A stretch of DNA of 42,249 nucleotides from Chloroflexota bacterium (GCA_036844545.1 DAIUFO010000001.1:25559-67807); one strand, 5' to 3'; shown: positions 8,054 to 30,060, counted from the stretch's first letter. Made by a program: numbers and translations. The notes: generated from the sequence alone by a model not told the origin.

Positions 8054-8087
8054 ACTTGACACACCAGCAAGACTTGACACACCAGCA
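8052..8087 (+). repeat. perfect tandem duplication of an 18-bp unit AGACTTGACACACCAGCA (x2)
   Basis: Read directly: 8052-8069 equals 8070-8087. Each unit carries a TTGACA hexamer (8056-8061, 8074-8079). Confidence 0.9.
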
Positions 8088-8102
8088 CTCAACTTTCATA
8101 CT
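8074..8102 (+). promoter_or_regulatory. candidate clpB promoter: TTGACA (8074-8079), 17-nt spacer, CATACT (8097-8102)
   Basis: The hexamers have canonical spacing. The -10 ends 6 nt before the clpB ATG (8109) and there is no SD, which suggests a leaderless or near-leaderless mRNA. Confidence 0.4.
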
Positions 8103-8108
8103 AGTTCA

Positions 8109-10736
<2,628 letters not shown>

Positions 10737-10766
<30 letters not shown>

Positions 10767-10853
10767 GGTGAGGGAGCCCAGCTCAGCCGTGAGCGCGCGC
10801 TGAGGGAGCGGGTGAGCGCCCTCACCTAGCCTCTCCCACCGCGGTAGGAGAGG
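10737..10853. repeat. composite palindromic element, two inverted copies: 10737-10775 (26-nt perfect palindrome plus CTAGGGTGAGGGA) and 10818-10853 (GCCCTCACCTAG plus 24-nt palindrome)
   Basis: Read directly. It sits between the convergent clpB and GT2 genes and contains both stop codons (TAG 10764-10766; TGA on the minus strand at 10822-10824). An inner hairpin CTCAGC..GCTGAG lies in the spacer. Confidence 0.85.
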
Positions 10854-11559
10854 AACAAGTGGGGGCTTGCGGATGGACGCGCAGGTCCTTCCATAGGAGC
10901 AGCAGCTCTTTGAAGGCTCGCAGGATCACCTTCAGCTTGGCGCCCGACGGCGAGCCTTTGGTGCGCGGCAGATGGGTCACGCCCACCTCCCGGAACACGA
11001 AGCCTGCGCGCCGCGCCCGGACCAACAGCTCGGCGCTGAAGGTCGCCCCGCGTGACTGGACCGGCAGCGACTCGATGACCTCCCGGCGCATCAACTTGAA
11101 GGCGCAATCCACGTCGCGCGCCGCGTAGCCAAACAGCAGGTTCACCAGCGAGGTCCAGCCCCAGCCGTTCAGCTTGCGCATCAGCGGGTCCTGCCGCACC
11201 TTGCGGTAGCCGGCGACGAAGTCGGCCGGCATCTCGGCCAGCAGCAGCCGCAGCTCGTCCAGCTTGAACTGCCCGTCGGAGTCGGTGAACATGCGTCGCT
11301 CGCCGGTGGAGGACGTAAGCCCGGTCCACACCGCCGCGCCGTAGCCCTGGTTGACCAGGTGGCGCACCAGGCGCACCCGCTCGTGCGTTTCGGCGAACTC
11401 GTGTACCAGGTCAGCCGTGTTGTCCTTGCTGCCGTCGTCCACCACGACGATCTCATAGTCGGGCTCGATACTCTCGAGCACGGCCACTGCCTCGTTGAGG
11501 ACGTCGACGATGTTCTCGGCCTCATTGTGGGCTGGCATAGCGAGCGAGAGCGCTGGCAT
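10822..11559 (-). CDS. family 2 glycosyltransferase (polyprenyl-phosphate sugar synthase-like)
   Basis: LSLAMPAHNEAENI.., VVVDDGSKDNT and FTDSDGQF (DxD). The 89-aa Arg/Pro-rich extension in the track ORF was rejected, and the start is placed at ATG 11559. The C-terminal SSPTAVGEAR comes from a repeat. Confidence 0.85.
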   Translation of the reverse strand: MPALSLAMPAHNEAENIVDVLNEAVAVLESIEPDYEIVVVDDGSKDNTADLVHEFAETHERVRLVRHLVNQGYGAAVWTGLTSSTGERRMFTDSDGQFKLDELRLLLAEMPADFVAGYRKVRQDPLMRKLNGWGWTSLVNLLFGYAARDVDCAFKLMRREVIESLPVQSRGATFSAELLVRARRAGFVFREVGVTHLPRTKGSPSGAKLKVILRAFKELLLLWKDLRVHPQAPTCSSPTAVGEAR

Positions 11560-11669
11560 GAGCGTAATCTGGACATTAGCACGCCACCGGGCAGGCGGCA
11601 GAGGGTGCTGACCCTCCAGTTCGCGGACACTGCCTGCTAGGATGCGGAGTGAGGTAAACGGCGAACAAC

Positions 11670-12668
11670 GTGGACCTGGCTCACATGGGCGAGTTCGGCG
11701 CGATTGAGCTGTTCCGGCAGGTTTTGGCGGCTCATACGGCCGAAGGCTCGCCGCGGCCGGAGATCGGCATCGGCGACGACGCCGCGGTGTGGCGCCCGAC
11801 CAAAGGCCGCTCGGCCATCGAAACAACTGACCTCCTCATCGAAGAAGTGCACTTCTCCTTGCGCTGGTGCAGCTGGTACGAGGTGGGCTGGAAGGCGATG
11901 GCCGTCAACGTCAGCGACGTGGCCGCCATGGGCGGCCAGCCCAGAGCGGCATTCGTTTCCGCCGGGCTGTCACCGGAAATGGGCACGGACCAGGTGCTCG
12001 AGCTCTATGGCGGCCTGGCTGACTGCGCGGCCGAGTACGGCCTCGCCATCCTGGGCGGCGACACCGTCGCCTCGCCTCGAGCGGCAGTGGTCAACGTCGC
12101 CCTCTACGGGGAGACCTTAGACGAGACCGGAGAGGTGCTGCGCCGCGATCGCGCCCGGCCCGGCGACGCGGTCGGCGTCAGCGGCCCGCTCGGCGCCTCG
12201 GGCGCCTATTTGCGGCGCCAGGAGGCGGCCTTTCGCGCCGCCCACCTCCACCCCCAGCCGCGGGTGACTCTTGGCCAACAGCTGCTGCGAGCCGGCGTCC
12301 ACTGCGCCATGGACGTCAGCGACGGCCTGCTCGCCGACCTGGCCAAGCTGTGCGCCGCCAGCTCCGCGGGCGCTCGCCTTGCCGCCGAGCGCATCCCCAT
12401 TGCTCCAGCCGTCCGGCAATTGCTGCCGGACGATGCCTTGGAGCTGGCCCTCACAGGCGGCGAGGACTACGAATTGCTGGTCTGCGGCCCAAAGGACGTG
12501 CTGGAGCAGCTGGGTTTAACGGTGATCGGCGAGATCGTCGAAGGCAGCGGCGTGCACGTGCTGGACAGCACCGGCGCCAAGCTCGACTACGCCAGCCGCG
12601 GCTACGATGCCTTTGCTCCCTCTCCCGCCGCGGCGGACGAGGGCTGGGGTGAGGGAACCAATGCGTAG
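11670..12668 (+). CDS. thiL: thiamine-monophosphate kinase
   Basis: GEFGAIELF.., IGIGDDAAV and the AIR-synthase-like fold motif (AMAVNVSDVAAMGG, DVSDGLLADL). GTG start. The C-terminal PSPAAADEGWGEGTNA comes from a repeat. Confidence 0.9.
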   Translation: MDLAHMGEFGAIELFRQVLAAHTAEGSPRPEIGIGDDAAVWRPTKGRSAIETTDLLIEEVHFSLRWCSWYEVGWKAMAVNVSDVAAMGGQPRAAFVSAGLSPEMGTDQVLELYGGLADCAAEYGLAILGGDTVASPRAAVVNVALYGETLDETGEVLRRDRARPGDAVGVSGPLGASGAYLRRQEAAFRAAHLHPQPRVTLGQQLLRAGVHCAMDVSDGLLADLAKLCAASSAGARLAAERIPIAPAVRQLLPDDALELALTGGEDYELLVCGPKDVLEQLGLTVIGEIVEGSGVHVLDSTGAKLDYASRGYDAFAPSPAAADEGWGEGTNA

Positions 12669-12717
12669 CACGGACAGCCACTCTCACCCTCACCCTCTCC
12701 CGGCAGCGGGAGAGGGG
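12618..12717. repeat. composite palindromic element, two inverted copies (12618-12656 and 12681-12717), spanning the thiL/tsaE junction
   Basis: Same family as 10737-10853. The thiL stop (TAG 12666-12668) and the only usable tsaE start (ATG 12661) both lie in the 24-nt spacer. Confidence 0.85.
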
Positions 12718-13176
12718 ACAGTAGTCTGCCACACCAGATCGCCCGAGGAAACCCGAGCTATCGGCCGGAAGATCGGCGCCGTTGCGCAGGCGGGCGACGT
12801 ACTCCTGCTGGTGGGCGAACTGGGGGCGGGCAAAACCGTCTTCAGCCAAGGTCTGGGCGACGGCTTGAGCGTCGAGGAGACCGTCAACAGTCCCACGTTT
12901 GTGCTGCTGCACGAGTACCACGGCCGGCTGACGCTGTACCACTACGACCTCTACCGCCTGGGCAACATCGAGGAGACAGTCTCGCATGAGTGGCAGGAGT
13001 TCCTGTACGGCACAGGCGTATCAGTGGTCGAGTGGGCCAACCGAGCGAGCGAGTTCCTGCCCACGGAGCACCTGTTGCTAGAATTCAGCATCGAATCCGA
13101 GACCAGGCGCGTCCTCCAATTGACCGCCGCCGGACGGCGCCACCTCGAGCTTCTGAGCGCTGTCCGATGCTCCTAG
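12661..13176 (+). CDS. tsaE: tRNA t6A37 biosynthesis ATPase TsaE
   Basis: P-loop GELGAGKTVFSQGL and SPTFVLLHEY. ATG 12661 overlaps the thiL stop (ATGCGTAG). The N-terminal roughly 19 aa come from a repeat. Confidence 0.85.
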   Translation: MRSTDSHSHPHPLPAAGEGTVVCHTRSPEETRAIGRKIGAVAQAGDVLLLVGELGAGKTVFSQGLGDGLSVEETVNSPTFVLLHEYHGRLTLYHYDLYRLGNIEETVSHEWQEFLYGTGVSVVEWANRASEFLPTEHLLLEFSIESETRRVLQLTAAGRRHLELLSAVRCS

Positions 13177-13796
13177 CTCTCGACACCGCTACCCACTACG
13201 CCAGCGTCGCCCTGCACGACGGGCAGCGCCTGTTGGGAGAGCACACCTGGCTGGCGTACCAGGACCACACCCGCACTCTTCTGCCTCATGTGCAGGCTCT
13301 GCTTGCCGGCGCGCAGGCCACCATCGACAGCCTGACTGGTATCGCGGTAGCCCTCGGCCCGGGTTCCTTTAATGGCCTGCGTGTCGGCTTGAGCACGGCC
13401 AAAGGCCTGGCCATCGCCCGCGGCCTGCCGCTGCTCGGCGCATCCACCCTGGAGCTGCTGGCCGCCGAATACGGCCTCGACGAGGTGACCATGAACGCCG
13501 GCCAAGGCCACATCTACCGCTGGAAACTCCCCTCTCCCGCCGCTTTCGCCGTCCGCGTAGGACCGGGAGAGGGCCAGGGTGAGGGAACCTGGAGCGGGGC
13601 GGGGTCAGCCTCCGAGATCGAGCTCGTGGACGGCGCCGCCCCCGACCGTGTACGGCATGCCGGCGTGCTGGCGGAGCTCGGCTGGCAGCGTCTGCGGGAA
13701 GGGCGCACACTGGACGTGGCCAAGATCGAGCCCATCTACGTCCGGCCGCCGCACATCACCGAGAGCCGCAAGAAAGCCCACATGCAGGCCGCCTAA
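13167..13796 (+). CDS. tsaB: tRNA t6A37 biosynthesis protein TsaB
   Basis: MLLALDTATHYASVAL.., GIAVALGPGSFNGLRVGLSTAKGLA and a C-terminal PIYVRPP. The start is placed at ATG 13167, overlapping the tsaE end by 10 nt. Confidence 0.85.
   Translation: MLLALDTATHYASVALHDGQRLLGEHTWLAYQDHTRTLLPHVQALLAGAQATIDSLTGIAVALGPGSFNGLRVGLSTAKGLAIARGLPLLGASTLELLAAEYGLDEVTMNAGQGHIYRWKLPSPAAFAVRVGPGEGQGEGTWSGAGSASEIELVDGAAPDRVRHAGVLAELGWQRLREGRTLDVAKIEPIYVRPPHITESRKKAHMQAA
13530..13586 (+). repeat. repeat copy inside tsaB: arms CCCTCTCCCG / CGGGAGAGGG with a 24-nt loop, plus CCAGGGTGAGGGA
   Basis: Read directly. Translated in frame as PSPAAFAVRVGPGEGQGEGT. Confidence 0.8.
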
Positions 13797-13797
13797 G

Positions 13798-14436
13798 ATG
13801 GCCACCACCTCGTCCACCTTCTACGTCGACCGCATGAGCGTGGCCGACATCCAGGAGGTGATCGAGATCGAGCGGCAGAGCTTCAGCCTGCCCTGGCCGC
13901 CGAACGCCTACAAGCGCGAATTGCAGGACAACCGCACCGCGCACTACATCGTGGTCCGGCGGCAGGAACCGGGCAGGCCGCCTCCTGCCCCAGCGCCCAA
14001 ACAGGACGAGCACCGAGGCCTGCTCGGGTTCCTGAAGTCGCTAAGCTCGTCGCCGTCGCTCGCGCCTCGGCAGGGCCCACCCACCCTCTACGGCTACGCC
14101 GGCCTGTGGCTCATGGTCGACGAGGCCCACATCACCACCATCGCGGTCCGGCCTGAGTCTCGCGGCAAAGGGCTGGGCGAGCTGGTCTTGTGCGGCCTGG
14201 TGGATACCGCGCTGGAGGTCAGCGCCCGCATCATAACCCTGGAAGTGCGCGTCTCCAATACCGTTGCCCAGAACCTGTACCTCAAGTACGGCTTCAAGCA
14301 GTCCGGCTTGCGCCGCCGCTATTACAGCGACAACAACGAGGACGCGCTGATAATGACCGCCGAGAACATCCATGCGCCGGTGTTCCTGAACAACTACAAG
14401 CTGCTGAAGAACAGCCTCCTGCGCAAGCTGGAGTAG
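13798..14436 (+). CDS. rimI: ribosomal-protein-alanine N-acetyltransferase (GNAT)
   Basis: GNAT core IAVRPESRGKGLGELVL.., YLKYGF, and the conserved position between tsaB and tsaD. It carries an insertion of about 40 aa of low complexity. Confidence 0.85.
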   Translation: MATTSSTFYVDRMSVADIQEVIEIERQSFSLPWPPNAYKRELQDNRTAHYIVVRRQEPGRPPPAPAPKQDEHRGLLGFLKSLSSSPSLAPRQGPPTLYGYAGLWLMVDEAHITTIAVRPESRGKGLGELVLCGLVDTALEVSARIITLEVRVSNTVAQNLYLKYGFKQSGLRRRYYSDNNEDALIMTAENIHAPVFLNNYKLLKNSLLRKLE

Positions 14437-14445
14437 GCAGCCTCT

Positions 14446-14518
14446 GTCATTTTGAGCGAAGCGAAGGACCCGCTCCGACGGCTGGCCCACGGATGCTTCG
14501 CTCGACGCTCGGCATGAC
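14446..14518. repeat. 73-nt imperfect palindromic intergenic element (GTCATTTTGAGCGAAGC...GCTTCGCTCGACGCTCGGCATGAC)
   Basis: The ends GTCAT/ATGAC and the inner arms GAGCGAAGC (14454-14462) / GCTTCGCTC (14495-14503) pair. This is the type of repeat that yields 'ILSEAKD / RFAQNDR'-like pseudo-peptides. Only one copy is in the window. Confidence 0.7.
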
Positions 14519-14529
14519 AAACTTGCGTC

Positions 14530-15564
14530 GTGCCAAACATCGTGGCCGTCGAGACGTCCTGCGACGAGACTTCGGCCGCGGTCGTCCGCGATGGCCGCTT
14601 TGTCGTCAGCAACGTCACCTCCACACAGGAGGCGATCCATCGCCGCTACGGCGGGATCGTGCCCGAGGTGGCCTCGCGCGAGCACCTGCTGACGATTGTG
14701 CCGGTGGTCAAGGAAGCCGTCGAGCAGGCTGGCGGTTGGTCCGCCATCGACGCCATCGCCAGCGTCCACGGCCCAGGTTTGGCTGGCTCGCTGCTGGTGG
14801 GCGTCAACATCTGCAAGGCGCTGGCGCTGGGGCGCGACTTGCCCTTGCTTGGCATCAACCACCTCGAGGGGCACATCTACGCCAACTGGGTGTACGACGA
14901 GGCAAACCCCGGCGAGCCGCCGGAGTTTCCGCTGCTGGCGCTCATCGTTTCCGGCGGGCACTCCGAGCTGGTGTTGATGCACGACCATGGCGACTACCAA
15001 CTGATCGGCCAAACGCGCGACGACGCCGCCGGCGAGGCGTTCGACAAGACCGCGCGCCTACTCGGCTTGGGCTACCCCGGCGGGCCGGCCATCCAGAAAG
15101 CGGCCGAGGGGTGCCATCACCCAGCCTCGCCCACCGCGGTGGGCGAGGAACAGATACGCCTGCCCCGGGCCTGGCTGCCGGGCACGCATGACTTCAGCTT
15201 CAGCGGCCTGAAGACGGCCGTGCTCCGGCTGGTCAGCTCGCCACACGAGGAAAGTGACGCATGGACCGCGGCGGTGGCGGCCGAGTTCCAACGCTCGGTG
15301 GTCGAGGTGCTGGTGGGCAAGACTGTGGCCGCGGCCGAGGAGCTGGGCGTCCGGTCGGTAGCCTTGGCCGGCGGCGTCGCCGCCAACAAGCCGCTGCGCG
15401 AGGCGCTGCAGCGGGTGGTCAGCTTGCCGTTCCACTGTCCCCGACTGTGGCTGTGTACCGACAACGCCGCTATGTCCGCCGCGGCCGGTTACTTCCACCT
15501 GATGCGCGGCGACGTCGCCGGGTTCGACCTGGACGTCGTGCCTGGGCTTCGGCTCGCCTCCTGA
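14530..15564 (+). CDS. tsaD: tRNA N6-adenosine threonylcarbamoyltransferase TsaD
   Basis: 344 aa. VAVETSCDETSAAV, INHLEGHI, SGGHSEL and FSFSGLKTAV. GTG start. Confidence 0.95.
   Translation: MPNIVAVETSCDETSAAVVRDGRFVVSNVTSTQEAIHRRYGGIVPEVASREHLLTIVPVVKEAVEQAGGWSAIDAIASVHGPGLAGSLLVGVNICKALALGRDLPLLGINHLEGHIYANWVYDEANPGEPPEFPLLALIVSGGHSELVLMHDHGDYQLIGQTRDDAAGEAFDKTARLLGLGYPGGPAIQKAAEGCHHPASPTAVGEEQIRLPRAWLPGTHDFSFSGLKTAVLRLVSSPHEESDAWTAAVAAEFQRSVVEVLVGKTVAAAEELGVRSVALAGGVAANKPLREALQRVVSLPFHCPRLWLCTDNAAMSAAAGYFHLMRGDVAGFDLDVVPGLRLAS
15114..15148. repeat. repeat copy inside tsaD: degenerate CCATCACCCAG flank plus a perfect 24-nt palindrome CCTCGCCCACCGCGGTGGGCGAGG (15125-15148)
   Basis: Read directly. 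Translated in frame as ASPTAVGEE. Confidence 0.85.
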
Positions 15565-15668
15565 GCGGGCGCATTTGGCAAAGGAGCGGTTCGGAAGAAA
15601 GTCCCAACCACCTGGCAAGCAGAAGCCCAACCGGGTAAGCTCATCGCAACTTAAATTCGGAGGACAAC

Positions 15669-16031
15669 GTGGACTTTTACCTGGAAGTGTTGAAGAGATA
15701 CGCCGACTTCAACGGCCGCGCCGGCCGCAAAGAGCTCTGGATGTTCGTACTCTTCAACATCATCGTCACAATCGTTTTGAATATTGTCGGGGGACTCATC
15801 CACTTAGCGTTCCTGGGCACTCTCTACTCACTTGCGGTTCTCTTGCCAAACCTGGCGGTGGGGGCTCGACGGCTGCACGATCGCGACATGAGCGGCTGGA
15901 TGTTGCTCATCGGGCTGATTCCCGTCTTCGGCGGGATCGCGTTGATCGTGATCTTCTGCCTCGATGGCACGCCTGGCGACAATCGCTTCGGCCCCAAACC
16001 CAACGGCGCCGTCTCCGTCGCCACGTCGTAG
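15669..16031 (+). CDS. DUF805 family inner-membrane protein
   Basis: 120 aa. YADFNGRAGRKELWMF.., RRLHDRDMSGW and a C-terminal GDNRFGPKP. Strong SD (GGAGGA) 4 nt before GTG 15669. Confidence 0.8.
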   Translation: MDFYLEVLKRYADFNGRAGRKELWMFVLFNIIVTIVLNIVGGLIHLAFLGTLYSLAVLLPNLAVGARRLHDRDMSGWMLLIGLIPVFGGIALIVIFCLDGTPGDNRFGPKPNGAVSVATS

Positions 16032-16058
16032 ATAGAGCGAATAGTCCCGCTCTATCTA
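16029..16058. terminator. 11-bp-stem hairpin TAGATAGAGCG-(8 nt)-CGCTCTATCTA between convergent genes
   Basis: Perfect inverted repeat. The two arms contain the stop codons of both convergent genes (TAG 16029-16031 and, on the minus strand, TAG 16056-16058). No U-tract. Confidence 0.5.
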
Positions 16059-17597
16059 GATCTTCGGCGTTAGGACGTACAGCTCTACGTTGGCAAAGCT
16101 CTGGCCTTCCGGCACGGGCTGCCAGGGCACGTCCCTGCGCTTGGCGTAGAACTCGTCCTGAGCGTGGATGAAAAGCCAGTAGGCGTCGTCGTGGACGTAG
16201 CGGCCCAGCTGCTGCAGCACCTTCACCCGCTCCTGGGGGTCGACGGTCCGGCGGCTGTCGTCGATCAGGCTGTTGAGCTTCCCATCGGGCGCATGCCCTT
16301 TGCGCTGGTACAGCGACCAAGCCAGCATCGCGTCCGGGTCGGCCGTGGCGCCCCAGGCGACTGACGTCATGCCCTCGAACGTGCCCGCCAGCCAGTCCGA
16401 TTGCAGCTTGGCGCGCTCGGTCGGCTGCAGCCGCACCTTGATGCCCACGTCGTTCAGCTCGCTGGCTACGGCCTCGGCGATCTCGCGGTCCTTGAGGAAG
16501 GTGCCGCTGGTGATGGTCCAGGTCGTCTCGAAGCCGCCGCTGTAGCCAGCGTCGGCCAGCAGCTGCTTGGCCTTGGCCGGATCGTAGGCGTAGGGCTTCA
16601 GGTTGGGGTCATACCCCGGCCAGGTCGAGCCGAATGCGCCGTGCAGCAGCTCGCCGTGGCCCTCGAGCACGTCTTTGAGGATGGCGTCACGGTTGACGGC
16701 GTAGTTGACCGCCTGCCGCACCTTCACGTCCGAGAATGGCTTCTTGGTGGTGTTGAAGGCGTAGATGATGGTCCGGGCGCCCTTCAACGAGGCCACTTCG
16801 GTATTGCCCGTCGATAGCTCCGGCAGCTGCGGCAATGGCGGCGCCTCGACGATCTGCGCCCCTCCGCTCTTGAGCTCGGCCACGCGCGTAGCCGGATCGC
16901 CGATCTGGCGAATGGTCAGCCGCTGGGGCTGCACCGTGCCGCGCCAGTAGGTCGGGTTCGCGTCCAGCACAATGCGCTGTCCCCGCGTGAACTCCGTCAG
17001 CTTGTACGGGCCGGTGCCGATCGGTTTGGCCGCGAACGCCTCCAGTCCGGCCTTGTCTCGCGCACTCTTCGGCAGGATGTAGAGCTGCGCCAGGTTGGCC
17101 GCCAGCCCTGGGCGAGGCCCGTCGGTGGTAATGCGCAGGGTCAGAGGGTCCACCGCCTGCACGTTGGTGATGCCCTGTGTGTAGATGTTGTGGGCCGACT
17201 TGGCATCCAGGTCCAGCTTGAGCGAGTACTCGGCGTCGGCTGAGGTGAAGTCGTCGCCGTTCTGGAACTTGACACCGCTGCGCAGCTTGAAGTCCCATAC
17301 GTTGCCGTTGGTCGTCCAAGACTCGGCCAGGCGCGGCGTGAGCTTGAACGGCTGGCCCTCGTAGGTAACGAGCGCCTCGAAGATGTGCCGCTGGACCTCG
17401 TTCGTGCCATTGGTCGTGTCGCTCGTGCCGGGGTCGAGGCTGGTGGCCTCCTCGGTCAGGGCCACTGTCCATTGGCTGCCGGCCGGCTTCGAGGCGGGGC
17501 TGGCCGAACCACCGCTGGCTGCTGGCTGGGCGCCGCCACACGCCGCCAGCAGGACGGCGGTCAGGGCAAGCGTTGGCAGTCGACGAAATGACGGCAT
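16056..17597 (-). CDS. ABC transporter substrate-binding lipoprotein, family 5 (peptide/nickel/opine type)
   Basis: Lipobox LLAAC, then family-5 SBP-like sequence throughout. The start is placed at ATG 17597 (SD GGAG 9 nt upstream) rather than the track's TTG 17612. Confidence 0.9.
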   Translation of the reverse strand: MPSFRRLPTLALTAVLLAACGGAQPAASGGSASPASKPAGSQWTVALTEEATSLDPGTSDTTNGTNEVQRHIFEALVTYEGQPFKLTPRLAESWTTNGNVWDFKLRSGVKFQNGDDFTSADAEYSLKLDLDAKSAHNIYTQGITNVQAVDPLTLRITTDGPRPGLAANLAQLYILPKSARDKAGLEAFAAKPIGTGPYKLTEFTRGQRIVLDANPTYWRGTVQPQRLTIRQIGDPATRVAELKSGGAQIVEAPPLPQLPELSTGNTEVASLKGARTIIYAFNTTKKPFSDVKVRQAVNYAVNRDAILKDVLEGHGELLHGAFGSTWPGYDPNLKPYAYDPAKAKQLLADAGYSGGFETTWTITSGTFLKDREIAEAVASELNDVGIKVRLQPTERAKLQSDWLAGTFEGMTSVAWGATADPDAMLAWSLYQRKGHAPDGKLNSLIDDSRRTVDPQERVKVLQQLGRYVHDDAYWLFIHAQDEFYAKRRDVPWQPVPEGQSFANVELYVLTPKI

Positions 17598-17608
17598 AGT
17601 TCTTCTCC

Positions 17609-18913
17609 TCAATCCAGAATCGTTGGGCCGGTCACGGGGGTGGCCAGCGCGTTCAGCGCCTTGGCCACCAGAGCCTTGCGGAAGGCGCGCTCGTCATCCC
17701 GGCGCAGACTTGGGTCGCCGGTGACGTTGACGATGGCCTTGCCGCGGATGATGCGATTGGCGCCGACGGCCAGCGCCACGTTGTCCAGCGCGGTGATGTA
17801 GGCGACTGGTATCCCGCTGGACTCCAGCTCCTTGGCGAGCGCGGCGCCGCCGCGACTGCACGACCCTCAGGCCCCGGTCAGGATCACGCCTTCGACGCCC
17901 GCGCCGTGCAGCTCGCGCGACATCTCCCGCGCGAAGCGGCGCATGGTGGGAATCGCTGAGGTATTGCCGACGGTCGTGTACAGCTCGTCGTGAAGCTGGC
18001 GAAAAGCTCCCTGCTGCTCCAGCTCCCGCAAGCTGTCCAGGGGAGCCATGCGGTCGGGGTCCTCGTTCACGTTGGTCGTGTCGAAGCCACCGTGCACGGA
18101 CTGCCAGTCCGCCGGCTGAAAGCGCTCCAACCCGGCAATGGAATAGCGCAGCCACTTGCTGGCGTAAGCCGATTCCAACCGGTCGGGATTACCGCGGGGC
18201 ACGACGCCGCCGGTGGTAATCATCGCGATCTTGGCCTGGGCCACATCCGGAATGGGCGGCGCCGGCTCGATCAGGCTGTACGTTGGCACCGTCCATTCGG
18301 TGGCGTACGGCTGTCCCGCCACCTTCCGCAGCAGCATGTCCACCGCCCGCTCCGCAGCCGTCCGCTCCGAAACCTGGTGGACGCGCCGGCCGGTGGGGAT
18401 GTATCCCTCCTCTGCCGGTGGGCCAAGCTCCTCGCCCGCGTGCAGCCTCAACGCCAGAGACGCCATCCGCTCCAGCGCGTCGCGCATGCCCAGCGCCGTG
18501 TCCCGCGTGCTGGCCAGGTACACCTTGGTCCGGTACATGTCGGCGCCAGGGTTCCCCGGGTGCATGCCCGATACAGCCGTGATGCCCAACGTCTCCTGGG
18601 CGTGGGCGCACACGGCGCCGCAGGCTAAGCCGTAACGGCCAGCTGCGAATGCCGGCCCCGCAATCAAGATGTCGGGAGCCTCGCTGGCGACCAACGGCAT
18701 GACCTCGTCCATGGCGCCGGAGGATTCGTTGGCGTAGTTGTCGCCGCAGTAAACGGTCGAGACCACTTGGGCGCGGTCGCCGAGTGCCTGCTGTAGCGCC
18801 AAGCCCGGGCCGGCTGGGCCGGACTTCCGGCCGGGCGGCAGCCCCGCCCGCGTCTCGCCGCCGATGCCCGCGAAGAACTGGTTGAGGTAATGGACCACTC
18901 GAAGGGCGCTCAT
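17609..18913 (-). CDS. grdB: GrdB-like selenoprotein (glycine/sarcosine/betaine reductase protein B selenoprotein-subunit family), 434 aa with Sec at residue 349 encoded by UGA 17867-17869
   Basis: The N-terminus is LRVVHYLNQFFAGIGGE. The ORF stops at TGA, but the same frame continues for 85 codons: U-GSCSRGGAALAKELESSGIPVAYITALDNVALAVGANRIIRG.., ending at TGA 17609-17611. The length and the Sec context match GrdB. Confidence 0.85.
17867..17869 (-). other. in-frame UGA, predicted selenocysteine codon
   Basis: The plus strand reads tca at 17867-17869. Family-conserved sequence lies on both sides of it in one frame. Confidence 0.8.
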
Positions 18914-18929
18914 CCCAAATCTCCTTCCG

Positions 18930-20207
18930 TCAATGGAAACGCGTGGTCTGCCGGCTGAAGCCCTGATTGCTGGAGGATGTATGAATGTACCGCATCTGCA
19001 GCGTCAGCTCTCCGTGCGGATCGACATCGGTGGTGATGAGCCGGCCACCGATGACCTCGTCCACGGGCGGCAAGGTCACCTGCCGGTCACGGGTGCCGAC
19101 GCAAACGATGGCGTCGGCTTCGGGCACGGCGTGGATGAAGCCGGGGTCGTCGTTACCCAGCCCCACGTCGAGGTACACCATGGTCGTCTTGATTCCGGCC
19201 TTTTCGCATTCCTGCACGGCAATCATGGTATCGATGGCCATGTTGCTGCCGTTGATGCCCAGCACGATCGCGGCCTCGGCGCCGAGCAGCTTGGCCAGCT
19301 TGGCGGCGCCCGTGCCGATGCGCTCCTTCTCCACACGCGTGGGCGACTCGTCGCCGAAAAGGATGGAGCCCAGGAAGTTCAGATCGCGTCCATGGCGGCG
19401 ACAGAGCTCCTGGAGCACCGCGTGGTTCTGGTCCCAATAGGTGCAGCGGTAGGCTTGCCGCCAACCGACCAGCGCGCCGTCGAACAGCTCGTTGGGGTGG
19501 ATCACCGTCCCAAATGGCAGTGGCGCGCGAAGCCCATACAGGAACGGGTGTTGGGTGTGGTGCAGGCACACCGTCCGCGGCAAGTCCGGATGGCATTTCG
19601 CCAGCTCGAACGTCTCCACCTCGTCCGGCTCCAGGCTGATTGAGACGCGCCCCAAATGCGCAGCCACTTTGAGGCTCGCGGCGGTGATGGCCCGGTTGTA
19701 GTCGATGGCCGCCGCGCCGCCGCCCAGCACGTCTTTGACGTTCTCCGAGCCGGCGGGGAAAAAGGCCGGGTTCGGCTCGAACTCCAGCACCACGTTGTGT
19801 GTACGGCCAAACGGACTGAAGTCGGCGCCTGGGCCGGACATATCCAGCACTTGCTCGCGGAAATGGGTCTGCTCGCCTGGCACCGGAGAGCTGACCTCGA
19901 CCACGGCCACGCCAGCCAGCCGGTGTGTCCTGCCGCTGCCCACCAGTGTCACATCTGAGACGAAGCCGGGGAACACTCCACCCGGGCCAGCTACCTTCCA
20001 GCGCGGCTCCACGACGTCCAGGCCGTTGACGATGCGCACCGAGTCGCCGGGCTGCGCCAGGTGTACTTGCACAGCGGCAAAATGGGAATCCTCCAGCACC
20101 AGCTGGCGGATCTCGTCGCGGTCGACCGTCAGCGTGTGCCCGTCGAGCGCTGTTCGCGAGCCAAAGGCAACCTCCCGGACCTGGAAAGAGCCGATATCGA
20201 GCCGCAT
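18930..20207 (-). CDS. grdE: GrdE-like proprotein (glycine/sarcosine/betaine reductase protein B alpha/beta precursor family, pyruvoyl-type)
   Basis: 425 aa. MRLDIGSFQVREVAFGSRT.., IHPNELFDGALVG, TYWDQNH.., LNFLGSI and GINGSNMAIDTM resemble GrdE/PrdA-family proproteins. It lies immediately upstream of the grdB-like gene. Confidence 0.8.
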   Translation of the reverse strand: MRLDIGSFQVREVAFGSRTALDGHTLTVDRDEIRQLVLEDSHFAAVQVHLAQPGDSVRIVNGLDVVEPRWKVAGPGGVFPGFVSDVTLVGSGRTHRLAGVAVVEVSSPVPGEQTHFREQVLDMSGPGADFSPFGRTHNVVLEFEPNPAFFPAGSENVKDVLGGGAAAIDYNRAITAASLKVAAHLGRVSISLEPDEVETFELAKCHPDLPRTVCLHHTQHPFLYGLRAPLPFGTVIHPNELFDGALVGWRQAYRCTYWDQNHAVLQELCRRHGRDLNFLGSILFGDESPTRVEKERIGTGAAKLAKLLGAEAAIVLGINGSNMAIDTMIAVQECEKAGIKTTMVYLDVGLGNDDPGFIHAVPEADAIVCVGTRDRQVTLPPVDEVIGGRLITTDVDPHGELTLQMRYIHTSSSNQGFSRQTTRFH

Positions 20208-20210
20208 CGC

Positions 20211-21131
20211 TTACACCTGCAACCTGGGGTCGAGCGCATCTCGCAGCCCGTCGCCGAACAAATTCGTGGCTAACACGGTGATGACCAGCGCAATGCCCGG
20301 GAACAGGCCCAGCCACCAGGCCGTGGACAGGTACTCGCGACCTTGGCTGAGCATGGCGCCCCAGCTGGGCGTGGGTGGCTGCACACCCAACCCGAGGAAG
20401 CTGAGCGAGGACTCGGCGATGATCAGCTCGGCGAACTGGAAGCTGCTGATGACGAAGATCGGCGCCATTACGTTCGGCGCCAGGTGGTGGACGATGATGC
20501 GAGCGTTCCGCGCGCCCAGCGAGCGCGCCGCCTCGACGAACTCGCGCGCTTTGAGGCTGAGCACCGCGCCGCGCACCGTCCTGGCGTAGACCACCCAGCT
20601 GCGCAGCGCCAGCACGATCACCAGGTTCAGCAGGCTCGGCTTGAGCAGCGCCATGACGGCGATGGCCAGCAGCAAGTACGGAAACGACAGCTGGATGTCC
20701 ACGATACGCATCAGCGCTGCGTCCAAGCCGCCGCCATAGTAGCCGGAGATCAGTCCCACCGCCACGCCCACTACCAGCGCGACCAGGACACTGACGCCGG
20801 CAATGGCCAGCGAGGTCCTAGCCGCCCAAATGACTCGCGTGAGCGTGTCGCGCCCCAGCGAGTCGGTACCGATGGGGTGGACTGTGCTCCCACCCACGAT
20901 CCAGGCTGGCGGCTTCAAGCCGTCGCCAAGATGCTGCGCATCAGGCCCGGCCGGCGCAAGGATGGGGGCGGCTAAGGCGACCAGCACCACCAGCGCCAGC
21001 AAGGCGAACCCCACGGCTCCGCTGCTGGTCCGCGCCAGCCGCCGCAGCGTCTCAAAGCGCCGCGGCTCCGCTTCCTTAGAGTCCCCTCGCCCGCTTCGGC
21101 GGGCGAGGGTTAGGGTGAGGGCACTCATCAT
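20211..21131 (-). CDS. ABC transporter permease (DppC/OppC type)
   Basis: 306 aa, with the binding-protein-dependent transport signature region (..SLSFLGLGVQPPTPSWG..). ATGA start/stop overlap with the upstream permease. N-terminal residues 3-17 come from a repeat. Confidence 0.9.
   Translation of the reverse strand: MMSALTLTLARRSGRGDSKEAEPRRFETLRRLARTSSGAVGFALLALVVLVALAAPILAPAGPDAQHLGDGLKPPAWIVGGSTVHPIGTDSLGRDTLTRVIWAARTSLAIAGVSVLVALVVGVAVGLISGYYGGGLDAALMRIVDIQLSFPYLLLAIAVMALLKPSLLNLVIVLALRSWVVYARTVRGAVLSLKAREFVEAARSLGARNARIIVHHLAPNVMAPIFVISSFQFAELIIAESSLSFLGLGVQPPTPSWGAMLSQGREYLSTAWWLGLFPGIALVITVLATNLFGDGLRDALDPRLQV
21084..21121. repeat. repeat copy: CCCTCGCCCGC-TTCG-GCGGGCGAGGG plus TTAGGGTGAGGG
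   Basis: Read directly. It lies inside the 5' end of the permease CDS and is translated on the minus strand as SALTLTLARRSGRGD. Confidence 0.85.
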
Positions 21132-22069
21132 GCCAGCTCCACCCGCTTGTCGAGGTAGCGGTACAGCACGTCAATCGTCAGATTGATGAGCACGAAGCCA
21201 ACCGCCACCACGACCAGCCCAGCCAGCACCACCGGGTAGTCACGTTTGAGGATCGAGTCCAGCATCAGCGTGCCCACACCCGGCCAGGCGAATACGGTCT
21301 CGGTCAGGATGGCCCCCCCCAGGAGTCCGCCGAGCTGCAAGCCGAGGACGGTGACGATGGGATTGAGCGCATTGCGGAAGGCGTGCCTTGCCACCACGGT
21401 GCGGCCTGCCAGGCCCTTGGCGCGAGCCGTCCGGACATAGTCTTGCGACAGCACGTCGAGCATGCCGGACCTCGTGAGCCGCGCCAGAAGCGCCAACAGG
21501 AACATGGCCAGCGAAACGCTCGGCAGGATCAACTGTGCGACGCTGCCTCGCCCCGATACGGGCAGCAGCCGGAAGTGCACCGCGAACACGAGGATCAGCA
21601 GCATGCCCAACCAAAACGTCGGCACTGACTGCCCCAGCAGCACGAAGCCCATGGCCAGGCGATCGAAGGCTGAGCCCCGCTTGACCGCCGACAGCATGCC
21701 GGCCGGGATCGCCACGGCCACCGCGATCGAGATCGCTGCCGCCGACAGCTCCAACGTCGCCGGCAGGCGTTCCAGCACGACCAGCATTGCTGGCTGGGCA
21801 TAGGCGAACGAGCGCCCAAAATCCCCCTGCACGAGGCGCGACAGGTAATGGCCGTATTGGAGGAGGATGGGCTGGTCCAGGCCATACGCCTGCTTGAAGG
21901 CCAGCCGCACCTGGTCGTCCGCCTGCGGTGGCAGCAGGATTTGGGTGACGTCTCCACTGAGCTGCAGCAGCACGAACGCCGCGATCGTCACACCCAAGAG
22001 TGACGGGATCGCCTGCACCAGCCGAGCCAGGGCAAACCGGACCACGCGCCTATTAGGCCATAGCGCCAA
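21128..22069 (-). CDS. ABC transporter permease (DppB/OppB type)
   Basis: 313 aa. The N-terminal RFALARLVQAIPSLLGVTIAAFVLL is typical of DppB. The start is uncertain (TTG 22069 or GTG 22045). Confidence 0.9.
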   Translation of the reverse strand: MALWPNRRVVRFALARLVQAIPSLLGVTIAAFVLLQLSGDVTQILLPPQADDQVRLAFKQAYGLDQPILLQYGHYLSRLVQGDFGRSFAYAQPAMLVVLERLPATLELSAAAISIAVAVAIPAGMLSAVKRGSAFDRLAMGFVLLGQSVPTFWLGMLLILVFAVHFRLLPVSGRGSVAQLILPSVSLAMFLLALLARLTRSGMLDVLSQDYVRTARAKGLAGRTVVARHAFRNALNPIVTVLGLQLGGLLGGAILTETVFAWPGVGTLMLDSILKRDYPVVLAGLVVVAVGFVLINLTIDVLYRYLDKRVELA

Positions 22070-22331: not shown

Positions 22332-23087
22332 ATGGAACGACTCCCGATTCAGACCCGGCTCGCCCGGGTCGAACACGACCGCGTGCTTATCCGCGGCCTC
22401 GACCTGTGCCAAGAGCTGCTCGGCAACATCACCTTTGCCGATATGGCGGGCCTCACGCTTATCGGCCGGCTGCCAACCCCAAACGAGCGCCGCATGCTGG
22501 ACGCGGTCCTAGTCGTGCTCGTCGAGCACGGCATGGTCTCCAGCGTCATCACCGCCCGGCTGACGTACGCCACGGCGCCGGAGTCCATCCAAGCTGCCGT
22601 CGCCGCGTCCCTGCTGGGCGCCGGCAGCGTCCATCTCGGCTCATCCGACATCTGCGCCCGCATCCTGTCCGAGGGACTCACCGCGCAGCCGGACCCCAAG
22701 GCCGCCGCCGAAGCCATCGTCCAGCGCTTTGCCAGGGCTCACGAGCGCATCCCGGGCATCGGCCATCGCACCCACTCGGCGGGCGACCCACGCGCCGTTC
22801 GCCTGTTCGCCATCGCCCGCGAAACGGAGGTTTACGGCAAGTACTGTGAGCTCCTGGAGCTGGTGGTCGACGCCACCGAGCGCCACATGAGCCGCCGCCT
22901 GCCCGTCAACGTCACCGGCGCCATCGCCGCCATCTCTCTGGACCTCGGCCTGCCGTGGCAGATCGCCAAGGCCTTTGCCCTCATCGGCCGCACCCTCGGC
23001 ACCATGGCCCACATCCGCGAGGAGATCGAGATGCCCGCCGCCGACGCCATCAGCGCCGCCATCAAAGCCGCGCTGCAAACCGACTAA
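22332..23087 (+). CDS. citrate synthase-like / citryl-CoA lyase family protein (short form)
   Basis: 251 aa. LIGRLPTPNERRMLDAVLVVLVEHGMVSS.., GIGHRTH and the VTGAIAAI pattern resemble the small citrate-synthase-fold proteins. Confidence 0.55.
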   Translation: MERLPIQTRLARVEHDRVLIRGLDLCQELLGNITFADMAGLTLIGRLPTPNERRMLDAVLVVLVEHGMVSSVITARLTYATAPESIQAAVAASLLGAGSVHLGSSDICARILSEGLTAQPDPKAAAEAIVQRFARAHERIPGIGHRTHSAGDPRAVRLFAIARETEVYGKYCELLELVVDATERHMSRRLPVNVTGAIAAISLDLGLPWQIAKAFALIGRTLGTMAHIREEIEMPAADAISAAIKAALQTD

Positions 23088-27244: not shown

Positions 27245-27395
27245 GGTGTCGCGTAGCTTACACGATAGTGGGCTGCCTCTGAAGATTTATCCCCCAGCTG
27301 TCACATCCGGAGACGATACGAAAACTTAACCACGGGCTTAACCCGGGGCTAATCACTCCGGCTTAGCTTGGAACCAGCACCACAGGAGTACAGGA

Positions 27396-28733
27396 ATGGC
27401 AGCCGCTAACGACACGATCCGCAAAGTGGGGCACCTGCTGCGCAGGGCTGGTTTCGGCGCGACACCCGACGACCTCCAGGCCTATGCCGCCAAGGGCGTC
27501 GCCGCCACCGTGGAAGAGCTGGTCAACGACGACCAGAAGACGGACGAGCTGGGGACCACGCTGGATAAGGTCCAGGGCGACCTGGTGGACCTCCACAACC
27601 TGGAGGACATCCAGACGTGGTGGCTGTACCGCATGCTGCACACCAGCCGGCCACTGCAGGAAAAGATGACCCTGTTCTGGCACGGCCACTTCGCCACTTC
27701 CCAGTACAAGGTCAACAACGCCCTGTTCATGCACCAGCAGAACGAGACGTTGCGCAAGTACGCCCTGGGCAACTTCAAGGACCTTGCCACGGGCATGGCC
27801 AAAGACCCGGCCATGCTCATTTGGCTGGACGGCAACACCAACCGCAAGGGCGCCCCCAACGAGAACTTCGCCCGGGAGCTCATGGAGTTGTTCACGCTGG
27901 GCATCGGCAACTACAGCGAGGACGACGTGAAGGCCGGCGCCCGCGCCTTCAGCGGCTGGAACCTGAACGTCGCCCAGGGACGGTTCGTGTTCAACAAGAA
28001 CCAGCACGACGATGGTGAGAAGGCCTTCCGCGGGCTGAACGGGAACCTCAACGGCGACGACGTCATCGCCAATGTCGCGGCCGATCCCGCCACGGCCAAA
28101 CGCCTGGCCAGCAAGCTGTTCGCCTTCTTCGCCTACGACAACCCCGGGCCGCAAGTCGTACAGCCCTTCGCCGACCTCTACTTGAAGAGCAACTTCGAGA
28201 TCAAGCCGGTGGTCAAAGCCATCCTGCTGTCGGACGCGTTCTACTCCGACAAGGCATACACCGACCATGTGAAGAGCCCAGTGGAATACGTAGTCGGGAC
28301 CGTGAAGCAGCTGGGCGGCCAGGTACGCGAGCGAGCGCTGGCCCCGGCCCTGCGGCAGCTGGGGCAGGAGCTCTTCAACCCGCCGAATGTCGCCGGCTGG
28401 CCAGGCGGGCCGGCCTGGCTGGACGCCTCCACGGTAGCCAACCGCTTTAACTTCGGCGGTCTCTTGGCCGCGGCGGTCAAGAATGCGCCGAGCCCCAACG
28501 GCGGCGGCTACATCGACCCCGAGTCCTTCGTCCAGAAGCTGGGCAGCAAGAGCTGGGACGCCGTCATCGACTTCTTCGGTGGCAGCTTGACCTCGGGCCT
28601 GACCGACACGACGCGCTCGGCCCTTCTTGACTATGCCGGCAAAGCGCAGGACCCGCGCCCGCAAACCCTCGACACAAAACTCCGGGGCCTCATCCATCTG
28701 TTAATGGTCAGCCCCGAATACCAGGTGGCTTGA
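27396..28733 (+). CDS. DUF1800 family protein
   Basis: 445 aa. HLLRRAGFGATPDDL.., the WF.HFA-like MTLFWHGHFATS and RELMELFTLG. Confidence 0.85.
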   Translation: MAAANDTIRKVGHLLRRAGFGATPDDLQAYAAKGVAATVEELVNDDQKTDELGTTLDKVQGDLVDLHNLEDIQTWWLYRMLHTSRPLQEKMTLFWHGHFATSQYKVNNALFMHQQNETLRKYALGNFKDLATGMAKDPAMLIWLDGNTNRKGAPNENFARELMELFTLGIGNYSEDDVKAGARAFSGWNLNVAQGRFVFNKNQHDDGEKAFRGLNGNLNGDDVIANVAADPATAKRLASKLFAFFAYDNPGPQVVQPFADLYLKSNFEIKPVVKAILLSDAFYSDKAYTDHVKSPVEYVVGTVKQLGGQVRERALAPALRQLGQELFNPPNVAGWPGGPAWLDASTVANRFNFGGLLAAAVKNAPSPNGGGYIDPESFVQKLGSKSWDAVIDFFGGSLTSGLTDTTRSALLDYAGKAQDPRPQTLDTKLRGLIHLLMVSPEYQVA

Positions 28734-28734
28734 C

Positions 28735-30060
28735 ATGAACGCATCTCGTCGCAACTTCCTCAAAGGCATCGCGGCCGCCGCCGGGCTGGGTATCGCTGCC
28801 CCGTTGGCGTACCTGAAAACGAAGGAGATCAGGTCGGGAACGGCATTCCTGCCGTCGCCGAGCCCGGAGTCCCGAGCCCCGAGTCCGGCATCGTCTTCCG
28901 CTCCTGCCTTGGCATCGGCCTCGCCGAGCGCGCCAGCCAAGACGCAGCCGCGGTCGCTGGTGGTCATCCAGCTGGCCGGCGGCAACGACGGTCTGGCTAC
29001 GGTGCTGCCCTATGCCGACGGCGCGCTGCACGACAACCGCGGCACGCTCGCCTTCCCGGACGATCAGCTGCTGAAGCTGGACGGTAAAGTGGCGCTGCAT
29101 CCCAACCTGAAGGGCCTGAAGACGCTGTGGGACGACAAGAAGCTTGCGGTCGTCCAGGGCGTGGGCTATCCCAACCCCAATCGCTCGCACTTCGCCTCCA
29201 TGGACATCTGGGCCAGCGCCACGCCTGGCAAACCATCACAGAGCGGCTGGCTCGGCCGCTACCTCGATGCCGCCCAACTCCCCGCCGACAATCCCTTCAA
29301 CGCTGCCAGCGTCGGCGGCGCGCTGCCGTTCGCCCTCAAGTCGCAGAAGACGGTGGTGGCCAGCGTGCAGGATGCCAGCACCTTCCAGCTCCGCACCGAT
29401 CCGCGCCATCCCCAGGACCACGACGAGCTGATGGCTGCCTTCAAGCGCATCTACAGCCGCGGCCTCGGCGGCGCGACCTATTCCGAGCTGGTCGGCAAGG
29501 CGGAGTCGACGGCCGTCAGCGCCGCCGCCGAGCTGAAGGACCTGGCTACCAAATACCATTCCGCGGTCTCGTACCCGCAAACGCCATTGGGCCGCGGCCT
29601 CCAGAACGTCGCCCAGCTGATGAGTGGCGGCTTCGGCACGCGCGTCTACTACGTCCAGACCGGCGGCTTCGACACCCATGCCAACGAGAAGACCGGCCAC
29701 GACCGGCTCATGTCGCAGCTATCGGACGCTATCGCCGCCTTCTACCAGGACATCAAGGCGCAGGGCCTCTCCCAGAACGTGGCCATGATGACCTGGTCGG
29801 AGTTCGGCCGGCGCGTCAAAGAAAACGGCTCCGGCGGCACCGATCACGGCACCGCCGCGCCCCTGTTCGTCATCGGCGACGCCGTCAAAGGCGGCTTGGT
29901 GGGCGATCACCCATCTCTCACCAAGCTCGACACCAATGGCGACCTTGTGTTCGGCATCGACTTCCGCTCCGTCTACAACACCATCCTCACCAAATGGCTC
30001 GGCCTCGACGGCCAAGAAGTCCTCGGCCAGAAATTCGACGTGCTGCCGCTGTTTGGTTAG
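28735..30060 (+). CDS. DUF1501 family protein (sulfatase-like fold) with a Tat signal
   Basis: SRRNFLKGIAAAAGLG twin-arginine signal, then GGNDGL.., GGFDTH and GTDHG motifs. This is the usual partner of DUF1800. Confidence 0.85.
   Translation: MNASRRNFLKGIAAAAGLGIAAPLAYLKTKEIRSGTAFLPSPSPESRAPSPASSSAPALASASPSAPAKTQPRSLVVIQLAGGNDGLATVLPYADGALHDNRGTLAFPDDQLLKLDGKVALHPNLKGLKTLWDDKKLAVVQGVGYPNPNRSHFASMDIWASATPGKPSQSGWLGRYLDAAQLPADNPFNAASVGGALPFALKSQKTVVASVQDASTFQLRTDPRHPQDHDELMAAFKRIYSRGLGGATYSELVGKAESTAVSAAAELKDLATKYHSAVSYPQTPLGRGLQNVAQLMSGGFGTRVYYVQTGGFDTHANEKTGHDRLMSQLSDAIAAFYQDIKAQGLSQNVAMMTWSEFGRRVKENGSGGTDHGTAAPLFVIGDAVKGGLVGDHPSLTKLDTNGDLVFGIDFRSVYNTILTKWLGLDGQEVLGQKFDVLPLFG

Follow-up and report, generated by a model that had tools for sequence, protein, structure and literature searches.

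A predicted selenocysteine-containing GrdE/GrdB-type pair encoded inside a Dpp/Nik-type ABC importer operon of a Chloroflexota bacterium and in related loci

In a 42,249-nucleotide stretch of DNA from a Chloroflexota bacterium (GCA_036844545.1, DAIUFO010000001.1:25559-67807; the whole stretch is called the window here), it was found that a pair of genes resembling grdE and grdB, the genes of glycine reductase protein B, lies inside a minus-strand operon (16056-22069) for an ATP-binding cassette (ABC) importer. Judging from the sequence, the pair encodes a protein-B-type enzyme which has a predicted selenocysteine, lacks the pyruvoyl site, and is genetically coupled to a substrate-binding protein (SBP) and two permeases of the Dpp/Nik type. 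The module is a real, conserved uptake-plus-reduction unit, and the pair probably breaks down an imported compound. Nearly all known Grd-type selenoenzymes come from anaerobes that ferment amino acids. Their five known substrates are glycine, sarcosine, betaine, D-proline, and fluoroacetate. The protein families and the general chemistry of the module are familiar, while the clade, the active-site changes, the importer partner, and the host range are not.

The five genes are tightly packed and probably translationally coupled. The first gene, permB (21128-22069), encodes a DppB/NikB-like permease (PF00528, 2.8e-45, and PF19300); its earliest possible start is a TTG at position 22069, and the real start may lie a few codons downstream. 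The stop codon of permB overlaps with the ATG of permC (20211-21131) as ATGA. The permC gene encodes a DppC/NikC-like permease (PF00528, 4e-30, and PF12911, the OppC_N domain), and its stop codon is separated by only three nucleotides (gcg) from the ATG of the GrdE-like gene (18930-20207; 425 amino acids; PF09338, 1.7e-84). A 16-nucleotide gap with GGAAGGAGA precedes the ATG of the GrdB-like gene (17609-18913; PF07355, 2.3e-132). From the extended stop codon of the GrdB-like gene, it is 11 nucleotides (ggagaagaact) to the ATG of the last gene, which encodes a family-5 substrate-binding lipoprotein (16056-17597; PF00496, 3.9e-94). Pfam assigns all five genes to families with E-values from 4e-30 to 2e-132, and third-position GC bias is strong in all of them (the G+C content of the window is about 65%). 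A first-pass annotation of the window had described five minus-strand genes across 16056-22069 with these gap lengths and had recognized a GrdE/GrdB-family pair embedded in a peptide-type importer operon; both descriptions were borne out by the junctions and the Pfam families, the importer being better called peptide/nickel-type. The selenocysteine codon, the lost pyruvoyl cysteine, and the missing ATPase genes described below were absent from that annotation. A scan for promoters and terminators gave matches at chance level only, and no regulator gene adjoins the operon.

Is this arrangement found in other genomes? A profile scan with the GrdE-like protein, using one genome per species, provided the best 80 loci, and further loci came from looking up metagenome homologues. 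Those whose GrdE identity to the window is 56% or higher make up the clade of the window pair; its 16 distinct loci belong to Chloroflexota, a Lacipirellulaceae bin, Methylomirabilota and Rokubacteria, soil metagenome-assembled genomes (MAGs) named 'delta proteobacterium', and unbinned metagenome contigs. Both permease genes lie directly beside the pair in 12 of the 16 loci, and a family-5 SBP gene is also present in 11 of these 12, the exception being the frameshifted locus L008. The remaining loci include one with the SBP gene only and one contig too short to judge. There are three gene orders: permB-permC-E-B-SBP, SBP-permB-permC-E-B, and E-B-SBP-permB-permC. Thus, the ABC-transporter context, whose conservation the first-pass annotation had proposed to check, is kept across several phyla. 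The identities of the five proteins to those of the window co-vary among the loci (74/73/71/73/66% in L001 and 60/64/61/62/45% in L004). Since these identities rise and fall together, the module has been inherited, and apparently transferred, as a unit. The conserved linkage also makes a transporter-substrate relation a reasonable inference. The earlier suggestion that the reductase acts on an imported small peptide or amino-acid derivative therefore stands as far as import is concerned, while the small peptide is just one candidate and nickel-type models score highest. Two more distant homologues on long contigs, P0101 and P0097 (about 49% identity), were considered for a comparison at genome scale. 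P0101 was rejected as uninformative; its arrangement differs, with a major facilitator superfamily (MFS) transporter, a GrdE-like protein, and a Rieske protein and no GrdB.

When a plain open reading frame (ORF) finder is used, the GrdB-like gene stops after 348 amino acids at a TGA codon (17867-17869). Reading through this TGA gives a GrdB-like protein of 434 amino acids with the motif LTGA-U-GSCSRGGAALAKELE, in which U is the predicted selenocysteine at codon 349 and the site T-x-x-U-G is found as LTGA-U-GS. The 11-nucleotide gap before the SBP gene requires that the TGA be read as selenocysteine, since a stop at the TGA would leave a gap of 269 nucleotides. It was revealed that a TGA lies at the homologous codon in all of the extracted GrdB-like homologues (56/56) and is followed by a conserved in-frame tail (85 codons). 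The GrdB-like protein scored 441.9 bits against PF07355 (cut-off 22), and its full length (residues 5-433) scored 474.1 bits against TIGR01918, the selenoprotein-B subfamily (cut-off 65.45). Only with this TGA decoded as the predicted selenocysteine is the GrdB-like gene intact. All of the database gene calls looked up that span the whole gene are split into an ORF of 348 amino acids (372 in one locus) and another of 57-81 amino acids. Since every copy looked up is split at the TGA, the family seems to be systematically mis-annotated.

A candidate SECIS (selenocysteine insertion sequence) core, the GC-rich hairpin CGCGGC-GGC-GCCGCG (17840-17854), begins 12 nucleotides past the TGA. The hairpin was predicted in 9 of 9 clade sequences (CGCGGC-GGY-GCCGCG); there are two G-U variants among them, and no compensatory change was seen. 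The hairpin is compatible with a bacterial SECIS and is inseparable from the coding constraint of the R-G-G-A-A sequence, and it offers no independent proof. Folding the single sequence downstream of the TGA gave a result no better than that of shuffled sequences. A tRNA scan and an Rfam scan of the window gave no tRNASec and no SECIS family match, and no sel genes were found by annotation of the large ORFs in the window. Might the reductase genes then be decaying or non-functional passengers, with a GrdB-like gene truncated at the TGA and a transporter link due to an accident of insertion? The 348-residue product of the ORF finder, the lack of covariation in the hairpin, and the ordinary local fold would agree with such decay. 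However, the invariant position of the TGA with its conserved tail, the coding-like G+C content at third codon positions (GC3) of 0.83 in the GrdB-like gene up to the TGA, the start of the SBP gene so close to the extended stop codon, and an arrangement kept in 12 of 16 loci, several phyla, and three gene orders make this explanation highly improbable.

The redox motif following the selenocysteine is altered. The clade has UGSC[SN]RGG (UGSCSRGG in the window) in place of the canonical UGTCTRCG. Thus, the UxxCxxC motif is incomplete in the window protein, in which the Cys at U+3 is kept and the residue at U+6 is Gly.

The partner subunit is altered at the site of its cofactor. Canonical GrdE has the sequence HPNE-x-x-DGAIVSGN-C-VSAC, and mass spectrometry identified Cys242 of Clostridioides difficile GrdE as the residue that is converted into the pyruvoyl cofactor (PMC9908766). 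In the alignment, the GrdE-like protein of the window and its clade have HPNELFDGALVGWRQA----YR instead. The window protein has a Gln in the Cys242 column (GWR-Q-A), and a four-residue deletion takes out the second Cys. The clade has either 'GWRQA----' or 'RWNRG----' at this site with Gln, Arg, or Leu in the Cys242 column, and no Cys, Ser, or Thr is conserved at or near the former cleavage site in the alignment. As far as the alignment indicates, the proprotein cleavage/pyruvoyl site is absent from the GrdE-like subunit. The same cysteine loss has been reported for betaine GrdI and fluoroacetate FarE, whose substrates need no Schiff base (PMC10838667). An AlphaFold2 model of the GrdE-like protein (predicted local distance difference test score, 92) is continuous across the former cleavage region. 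A Foldseek search of the PDB with this model gave nothing significant (best E 0.011, template modelling score 0.21), and PDB sequence searches with the GrdE-like protein, the GrdE-like profile, and the GrdB-like protein found no relative. Since neither subunit has a signal peptide, the reductase is cytoplasmic.

Does the pair belong to one of the known reductase types? The GrdB-like protein scored below the cut-offs of the models for glycine reductase (TIGR01917, 449.6 bits versus a cut-off of 602.2; the canonical GrdB of locus L034 scored 676), sarcosine GrdF (NF040794, 471 versus 800), betaine GrdH (NF040795, 399.8 versus 775), and PrdB (TIGR04483, 76.6 versus 300). The GrdE-like protein likewise scored below those for sarcosine GrdG (NF040793, 224 versus 780) and FarE (NF053623, 151.6 versus 675), and the PrdA model (TIGR04480) did not match it. 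Nobu et al. (PMC9751293) proposed the motif GPxF[NF]AGRYG...AHGGxD[QTAP]x8RV[IL]PxD...TxGNxTxV for GrdB and IHGGYDR...TTGTGT for GrdF. As regular expressions, neither matches the window protein, which has GPAFAAGRYG, VHGGFDT, RMAPLD, and TVGNTSAI for the GrdB motif. Canonical loci pass the published motifs or miss them by one residue, and six of them pass the GrdB motif. In a neighbour-joining tree of GrdB-like sequences, the clade is monophyletic and well separated from the canonical SGNCV/UGTCTRCG clade. Judged by the curated cut-offs and the published motifs, the pair does not qualify as a reductase for glycine, sarcosine, betaine, proline, or fluoroacetate, and in the tree it represents a clade of its own. 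The question raised earlier of whether the pair would cluster inside bona fide glycine reductase B proteins is thus answered in the negative, by the tree and by the low scores. Among eight representative GrdB-like proteins of other clades, only the canonical L034 passes the glycine cut-off, so that the environmental diversity of the GrdB-like family is largely unclassified. A full-text search of a collection of papers found no description of the clade or of a Grd-type pair in a Dpp-type operon, and reviews of prokaryotic selenoproteomes cover GrdB solely as a part of glycine reductase. The label 'beta-aspartyl-peptidase' on the homologue P0011 was rejected as an isolated submitter name with no family-model support.

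The importer components were also compared with family models. The best NCBIfam match of permB is the Opp2B nickel permease (313 bits, cut-off 350), and permC matches Opp4C (293 bits) and Opp2C (284 bits, cut-off 300), both under the cut-off. EAA-type coupling motifs are kept in both permeases (YVRTARAKGL in permB and FVEAARSLGA in permC). The N-terminus of the SBP, MPSFRRLPTLALTAVLLAAC, is a lipoprotein signal peptide with the lipobox LLAAC. The SBP matches Opp5A/NikA best (184 bits), followed by GsiB (149) and DppA (139), all far under the cut-offs, and its PDB relatives are about equally distant (an uncharacterized SBP, HbpA, GsiB, AgaA, DppA, and NikA; E-values from 1e-47 to 1e-36). With a family-5 SBP and two permeases bearing EAA motifs, the set has the make-up of a PepT-family importer. 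An attempt to derive the SBP specificity from these relatives did not narrow it, the peptide, glutathione, nickel, and opine binders being roughly equidistant.

The leading position of the nickel models for both permeases and for the SBP, together with NikA, CntA-like, and agropinic-acid binders among the PDB relatives of the SBP, raises the idea that the importer takes up a metal chelate (a complex of nickel or cobalt, or else a metallophore of the opine type) and that the selenoenzyme reductively cleaves the N-C(alpha) bond of the chelator to free the metal or recycle the ligand. Opine metallophores would suit this idea in having N-substituted alpha-amino-acid linkages, the kind of bond cut by sarcosine-type reductases. 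However, all of the nickel scores are below the cut-offs with oligopeptide, glutathione, and dipeptide models nearly equal, and the clade loci examined have neither a metal-dependent regulator nor a gene for metallophore synthesis or a nickel enzyme next to them. Moreover, secondary amines normally need the carbonyl cofactor that the clade has lost (PMC10838667). I regard this explanation as improbable.

No ABC ATPase gene (PF00005; DppD/DppF) was found in the annotated window, and a scan for ORFs with both Walker A and LSGGQ motifs found no Dpp-type ATPase in the 15 clade loci examined. The only such ORFs in the clade loci appear to come from other transporters, Liv-like by gene order or with a MacB/FtsX neighbour. 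In two Methylomirabilota loci, L004 (about 12650-20200) and L005 (6681-11306), the run of ORFs following the module fits by sizes and order a Liv-type transporter consisting of a binding protein, two permeases, and two ATPases. The ATPase-like ORFs of these two loci were considered as the missing DppD/F and rejected, since by gene sizes and order they look like part of the downstream Liv-type transporter. As both permeases keep the EAA coupling motifs, I infer that the ATPases are supplied from another locus.

In classical reductases, protein B works with GrdA, GrdC, GrdD, and thioredoxin. The canonical grdX-trxB-trxA-grdE-grdA-grdB-grdC-grdD cluster was recovered in L034, and its proteins served as the reference for tblastn searches. 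GrdA, GrdC, GrdD, GrdX, TrxA, and TrxB had no match in the window (E<=1e-5), and annotating its large ORFs with Pfam and NCBIfam models turned up none of their genes. The same genes were absent within about 10 kb of the clade loci (0/16). The statement of the first-pass annotation that grdA, grdC, grdD, trxA, and trxB are missing here is thus confirmed for the window, and its term 'orphan' is right in the neighbourhood sense, for the 42 kb of the window and for the surroundings of the 16 clade loci. A chemistry independent of GrdA, which had also been put forward, is possible.

The explanation I favour, with a confidence that reaches about halfway, is an uptake-and-reduction module whose partners, GrdA/GrdC-type proteins and thioredoxin, act in trans. 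In characterized bacteria such as Cloacibacillus, substrate-specific protein-B pairs lie beside a transporter gene (opuD, putP, SLC6, or MFS) and away from grdA and grdCD, and the several protein-B modules of such a bacterium all draw on a single GrdA/GrdCD set from another locus (PMC10838667). Members of neighbouring uncharacterized clades also adjoin GrdC-GrdA (L012, L017, and L078). Partners in trans are favoured because of this precedent and these neighbouring clades. The importer, consisting of the SBP, the two permeases, and ATPases from another locus, would bring in a specific solute that serves as the substrate of the enzyme. The selenol of the GrdB-like subunit would then attack the carbon in the alpha position to a carboxyl or carbonyl group, displacing a leaving group without Schiff-base activation, which is proposed by analogy with the betaine (GrdH/GrdI) and fluoroacetate (FarB/FarE) reductases. 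The resulting seleno-adduct would be resolved by partners from outside the operon, most likely a GrdA/GrdC-type acceptor and a thioredoxin system encoded elsewhere. Candidate substrates are betaine-like or N-substituted amino-acid derivatives, opine/metallophore-type compounds, and glycyl peptides.

Several observations weigh against this explanation. None of the 16 clade loci has the partner genes nearby, while several other environmental clades always have GrdC-GrdA next door. A second GrdE locus with GrdA/GrdC was found in 0 of 7 clade MAGs among the best 80 genome matches, which is weak evidence. The host lineages are not known as Stickland fermenters. The near-equal distance of the SBP from binders of different ligands names no substrate, and the ATPases are missing, so that transport by the importer in this form is presumed.

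Some of these observations, and others, would suit a tentative and less probable alternative, that is, a self-contained selenoreductase which works without GrdA by a logic like that of D-proline reductase. Such an enzyme would cleave an imported peptide-, opine-, or betaine-like compound without proteins A and C in non-Stickland Chloroflexota and Methylomirabilota of soil and groundwater. The Cys at U+3 (U-G-S-C) would resolve the seleno-adduct as a selenenylsulfide via the U-x-x-C motif, releasing the reduced product, and thioredoxin or another thiol would then reduce the Se-S bond; neither acetyl-phosphate nor ATP by substrate-level phosphorylation would be formed, and the role of the enzyme would be catabolism or detoxification of the imported solute. 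The empty neighbourhoods of all clade loci, the movement of the module between phyla as a five-gene unit, and a clade motif that keeps the U+3 Cys and not the U+6 Cys are in line with this. Grd-type fermentation is not known from the hosts (Chloroflexota, Methylomirabilota/Rokubacteria, and MAGs of soil and groundwater), and an importer of the Dpp type points to a substrate larger than glycine, whose adduct would not be the carboxymethyl group handled by GrdA/GrdC. On the other hand, a GrdB-type enzyme that works without protein A is not known, and the motif with the U+3 Cys only is shared by a clade that has GrdC-GrdA as neighbours (L078). The absence of partners from a 20-kb neighbourhood says little about the whole genome, and unlinked protein-B modules are normal in organisms with GrdA (PMC10838667).

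Whichever way the adduct is resolved, the module represents a well-conserved further branch of the Grd family, with a different class of importer and no pyruvoyl site, in uncultured lineages of soil and groundwater. Identifying the substrate would add a reaction to the family, and the SBP is a direct experimental handle for this. Study of the module could further reveal if enzymes of the protein-B type can do without proteins A and C. If the self-contained reading is true, it would give the Grd family a new class of catabolic reaction and selenocysteine a new role outside strict anaerobes.

Other arrangements of Grd-type genes were encountered among the relatives. Uncharacterized GrdE/GrdB pairs (L045, L047, L051, L054, L057, L060, L061, L063, L067, L075, and others) adjoin GrdC and GrdA with no GrdD detected. 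The hosts of these L045-type pairs include Acidimicrobiia, Nitrospinota, and Tectomicrobia; their GrdE has a Tyr for the pyruvoyl Cys (SGN-Y-V or GAN-Y-K), and their GrdB motif is UGTGTR[CS]G. The Chloroflexi MAG containing L001 has a second locus, L003, in which a 343-residue ORF (1615-2646) separates the GrdE-like gene from the GrdB-like one. Judged by eye, the product of this ORF resembles a DsbA/thioredoxin fold with a ferritin-like tail and could be a redox partner. In L026 (Ardenticatenaceae), a protein of 448 residues which by eye resembles an FAD-dependent amine oxidase is encoded between GrdE and GrdB (11286-12632), where canonical clusters have grdA. A GrdE-GrdB gap of the same size, about 1.5 kb, was found in L035 (Caldilineaceae) and L053 (Anaerolineae). 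Closed chromosomes of Dehalococcoidia MAGs have tandem arrays of three diverged GrdE-like genes at several loci per genome (L013-L015, L038, L040, and L043 at about 10001-14700; L032, L044, and L059 at about 7370-11300), and the 10 kb around these arrays yielded no GrdB-like gene. L087 (10001-12596) and L090 (6377-10865) also have GrdE-like genes without any GrdB. One of these genes (49% identity to the window protein) lies between an MFS transporter gene and a gene for a 421-residue Rieske protein, and the other lies directly after a family-5 SBP gene inside a molybdenum-hydroxylase (xanthine-dehydrogenase-type) cluster.

The remaining part of the window mostly carries housekeeping genes (recA, rpoN, gmk, clpB, thiL-tsaE-tsaB-rimI-tsaD, fabF, and rnc) together with a molybdenum hydroxylase and a restriction-modification pair. 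A citryl-CoA-lyase-like gene (22332-23087, plus strand; NF004868, 281 bits, above the cut-off) is divergent from the operon and has a 262-nucleotide upstream region in common with it. A DUF1800/DUF1501 gene pair (27342-30060, plus strand) is followed by a gene for a putative endonuclease of the Uma2 family (30060-30641, minus strand). At 32681-34072 (plus strand), a BglII-family endonuclease gene (PF09195, 1.8e-44) is followed by an MT-A70 methyltransferase gene (PF05063, 3.4e-26), resembling a type II restriction-modification pair. The G+C content of the window is lowest (0.628) where this pair lies, which suggests a recent acquisition. The sole match of an ORF at 39890-40738 (plus strand) is to Hen1_L (3.9e-24), the domain of the bacterial RNA-repair protein Hen1 that associates with Pnkp. 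The ORF overlaps with neighbouring ORFs, neither Pnkp nor the methyltransferase part was found, and it may be a remnant.

How does the module compare with known systems? With the Dpp/Opp/Nik/Gsi importers of the PepT family it shares the family-5 SBP, the two BPD_transp_1 permeases with OppC_N and BPD_transp_1_N extensions, and the EAA motifs. It differs from them in lacking the DppD/DppF ATPase genes, in having two cytoplasmic enzyme genes between the permease genes and the SBP gene, and in that all of its importer components score under all equivalog cut-offs. Protein B of glycine reductase, as in Peptoclostridium acidaminophilum, Acetoanaerobium sticklandii, and Clostridioides difficile, resembles the window pair in its families (PF07355 and PF09338), subunit sizes, selenocysteine position (T-x-x-U-G), and E-then-B gene order, and canonical pairs found here such as that of L034 are 36-48% identical to the window pair. 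However, the window pair falls below the TIGR01917 cut-off, does not match the GrdB motif, lacks both Cys242 and the second Cys of GrdE, and has UxxC in place of UxxCxxC. Its locus also differs from a glycine reductase cluster in being part of an ABC importer operon, with no grdA between the E and B genes and no grdX, trxB, trxA, or grdCD nearby.

D-proline reductase (PrdA/PrdB) is a two-component selenoenzyme homologous to GrdE/GrdB and is the mechanistic model for a cycle independent of GrdA. It completes the reduction without GrdA/GrdC and without ATP formation. In contrast to the GrdE-like protein of the window, PrdA bears a pyruvoyl group, and PrdB has about 240 residues versus 434 for the GrdB-like protein, which scores 77 bits versus 300 with the PrdB model. 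The FarB/FarE enzyme of Cloacibacillus porcorum also has an E-type subunit without the processing cysteines and a B-type subunit with partial loss of CxxC, and its substrate is an alpha-substituted acetate that bears a good leaving group (PMC10838667). The far operon contains an antiporter and an oxidoreductase of its own and relies on GrdA, the phyla and habitat differ, and the score with the FarE model is 152 versus 675. Betaine reductase (GrdH/GrdI) differs from the window pair in its transporter, a BCCT/OpuD carrier versus a Dpp/Nik-type ABC importer, in its selenocysteine motif, and in the GrdH score (400 versus 775 bits). The E-type subunit of the window lacks the processing cysteines, as has been reported for GrdI (PMC10838667). 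The substrate of betaine reductase needs no Schiff base, and its gene pair usually lies beside the gene of its transporter and apart from grdA and grdCD.

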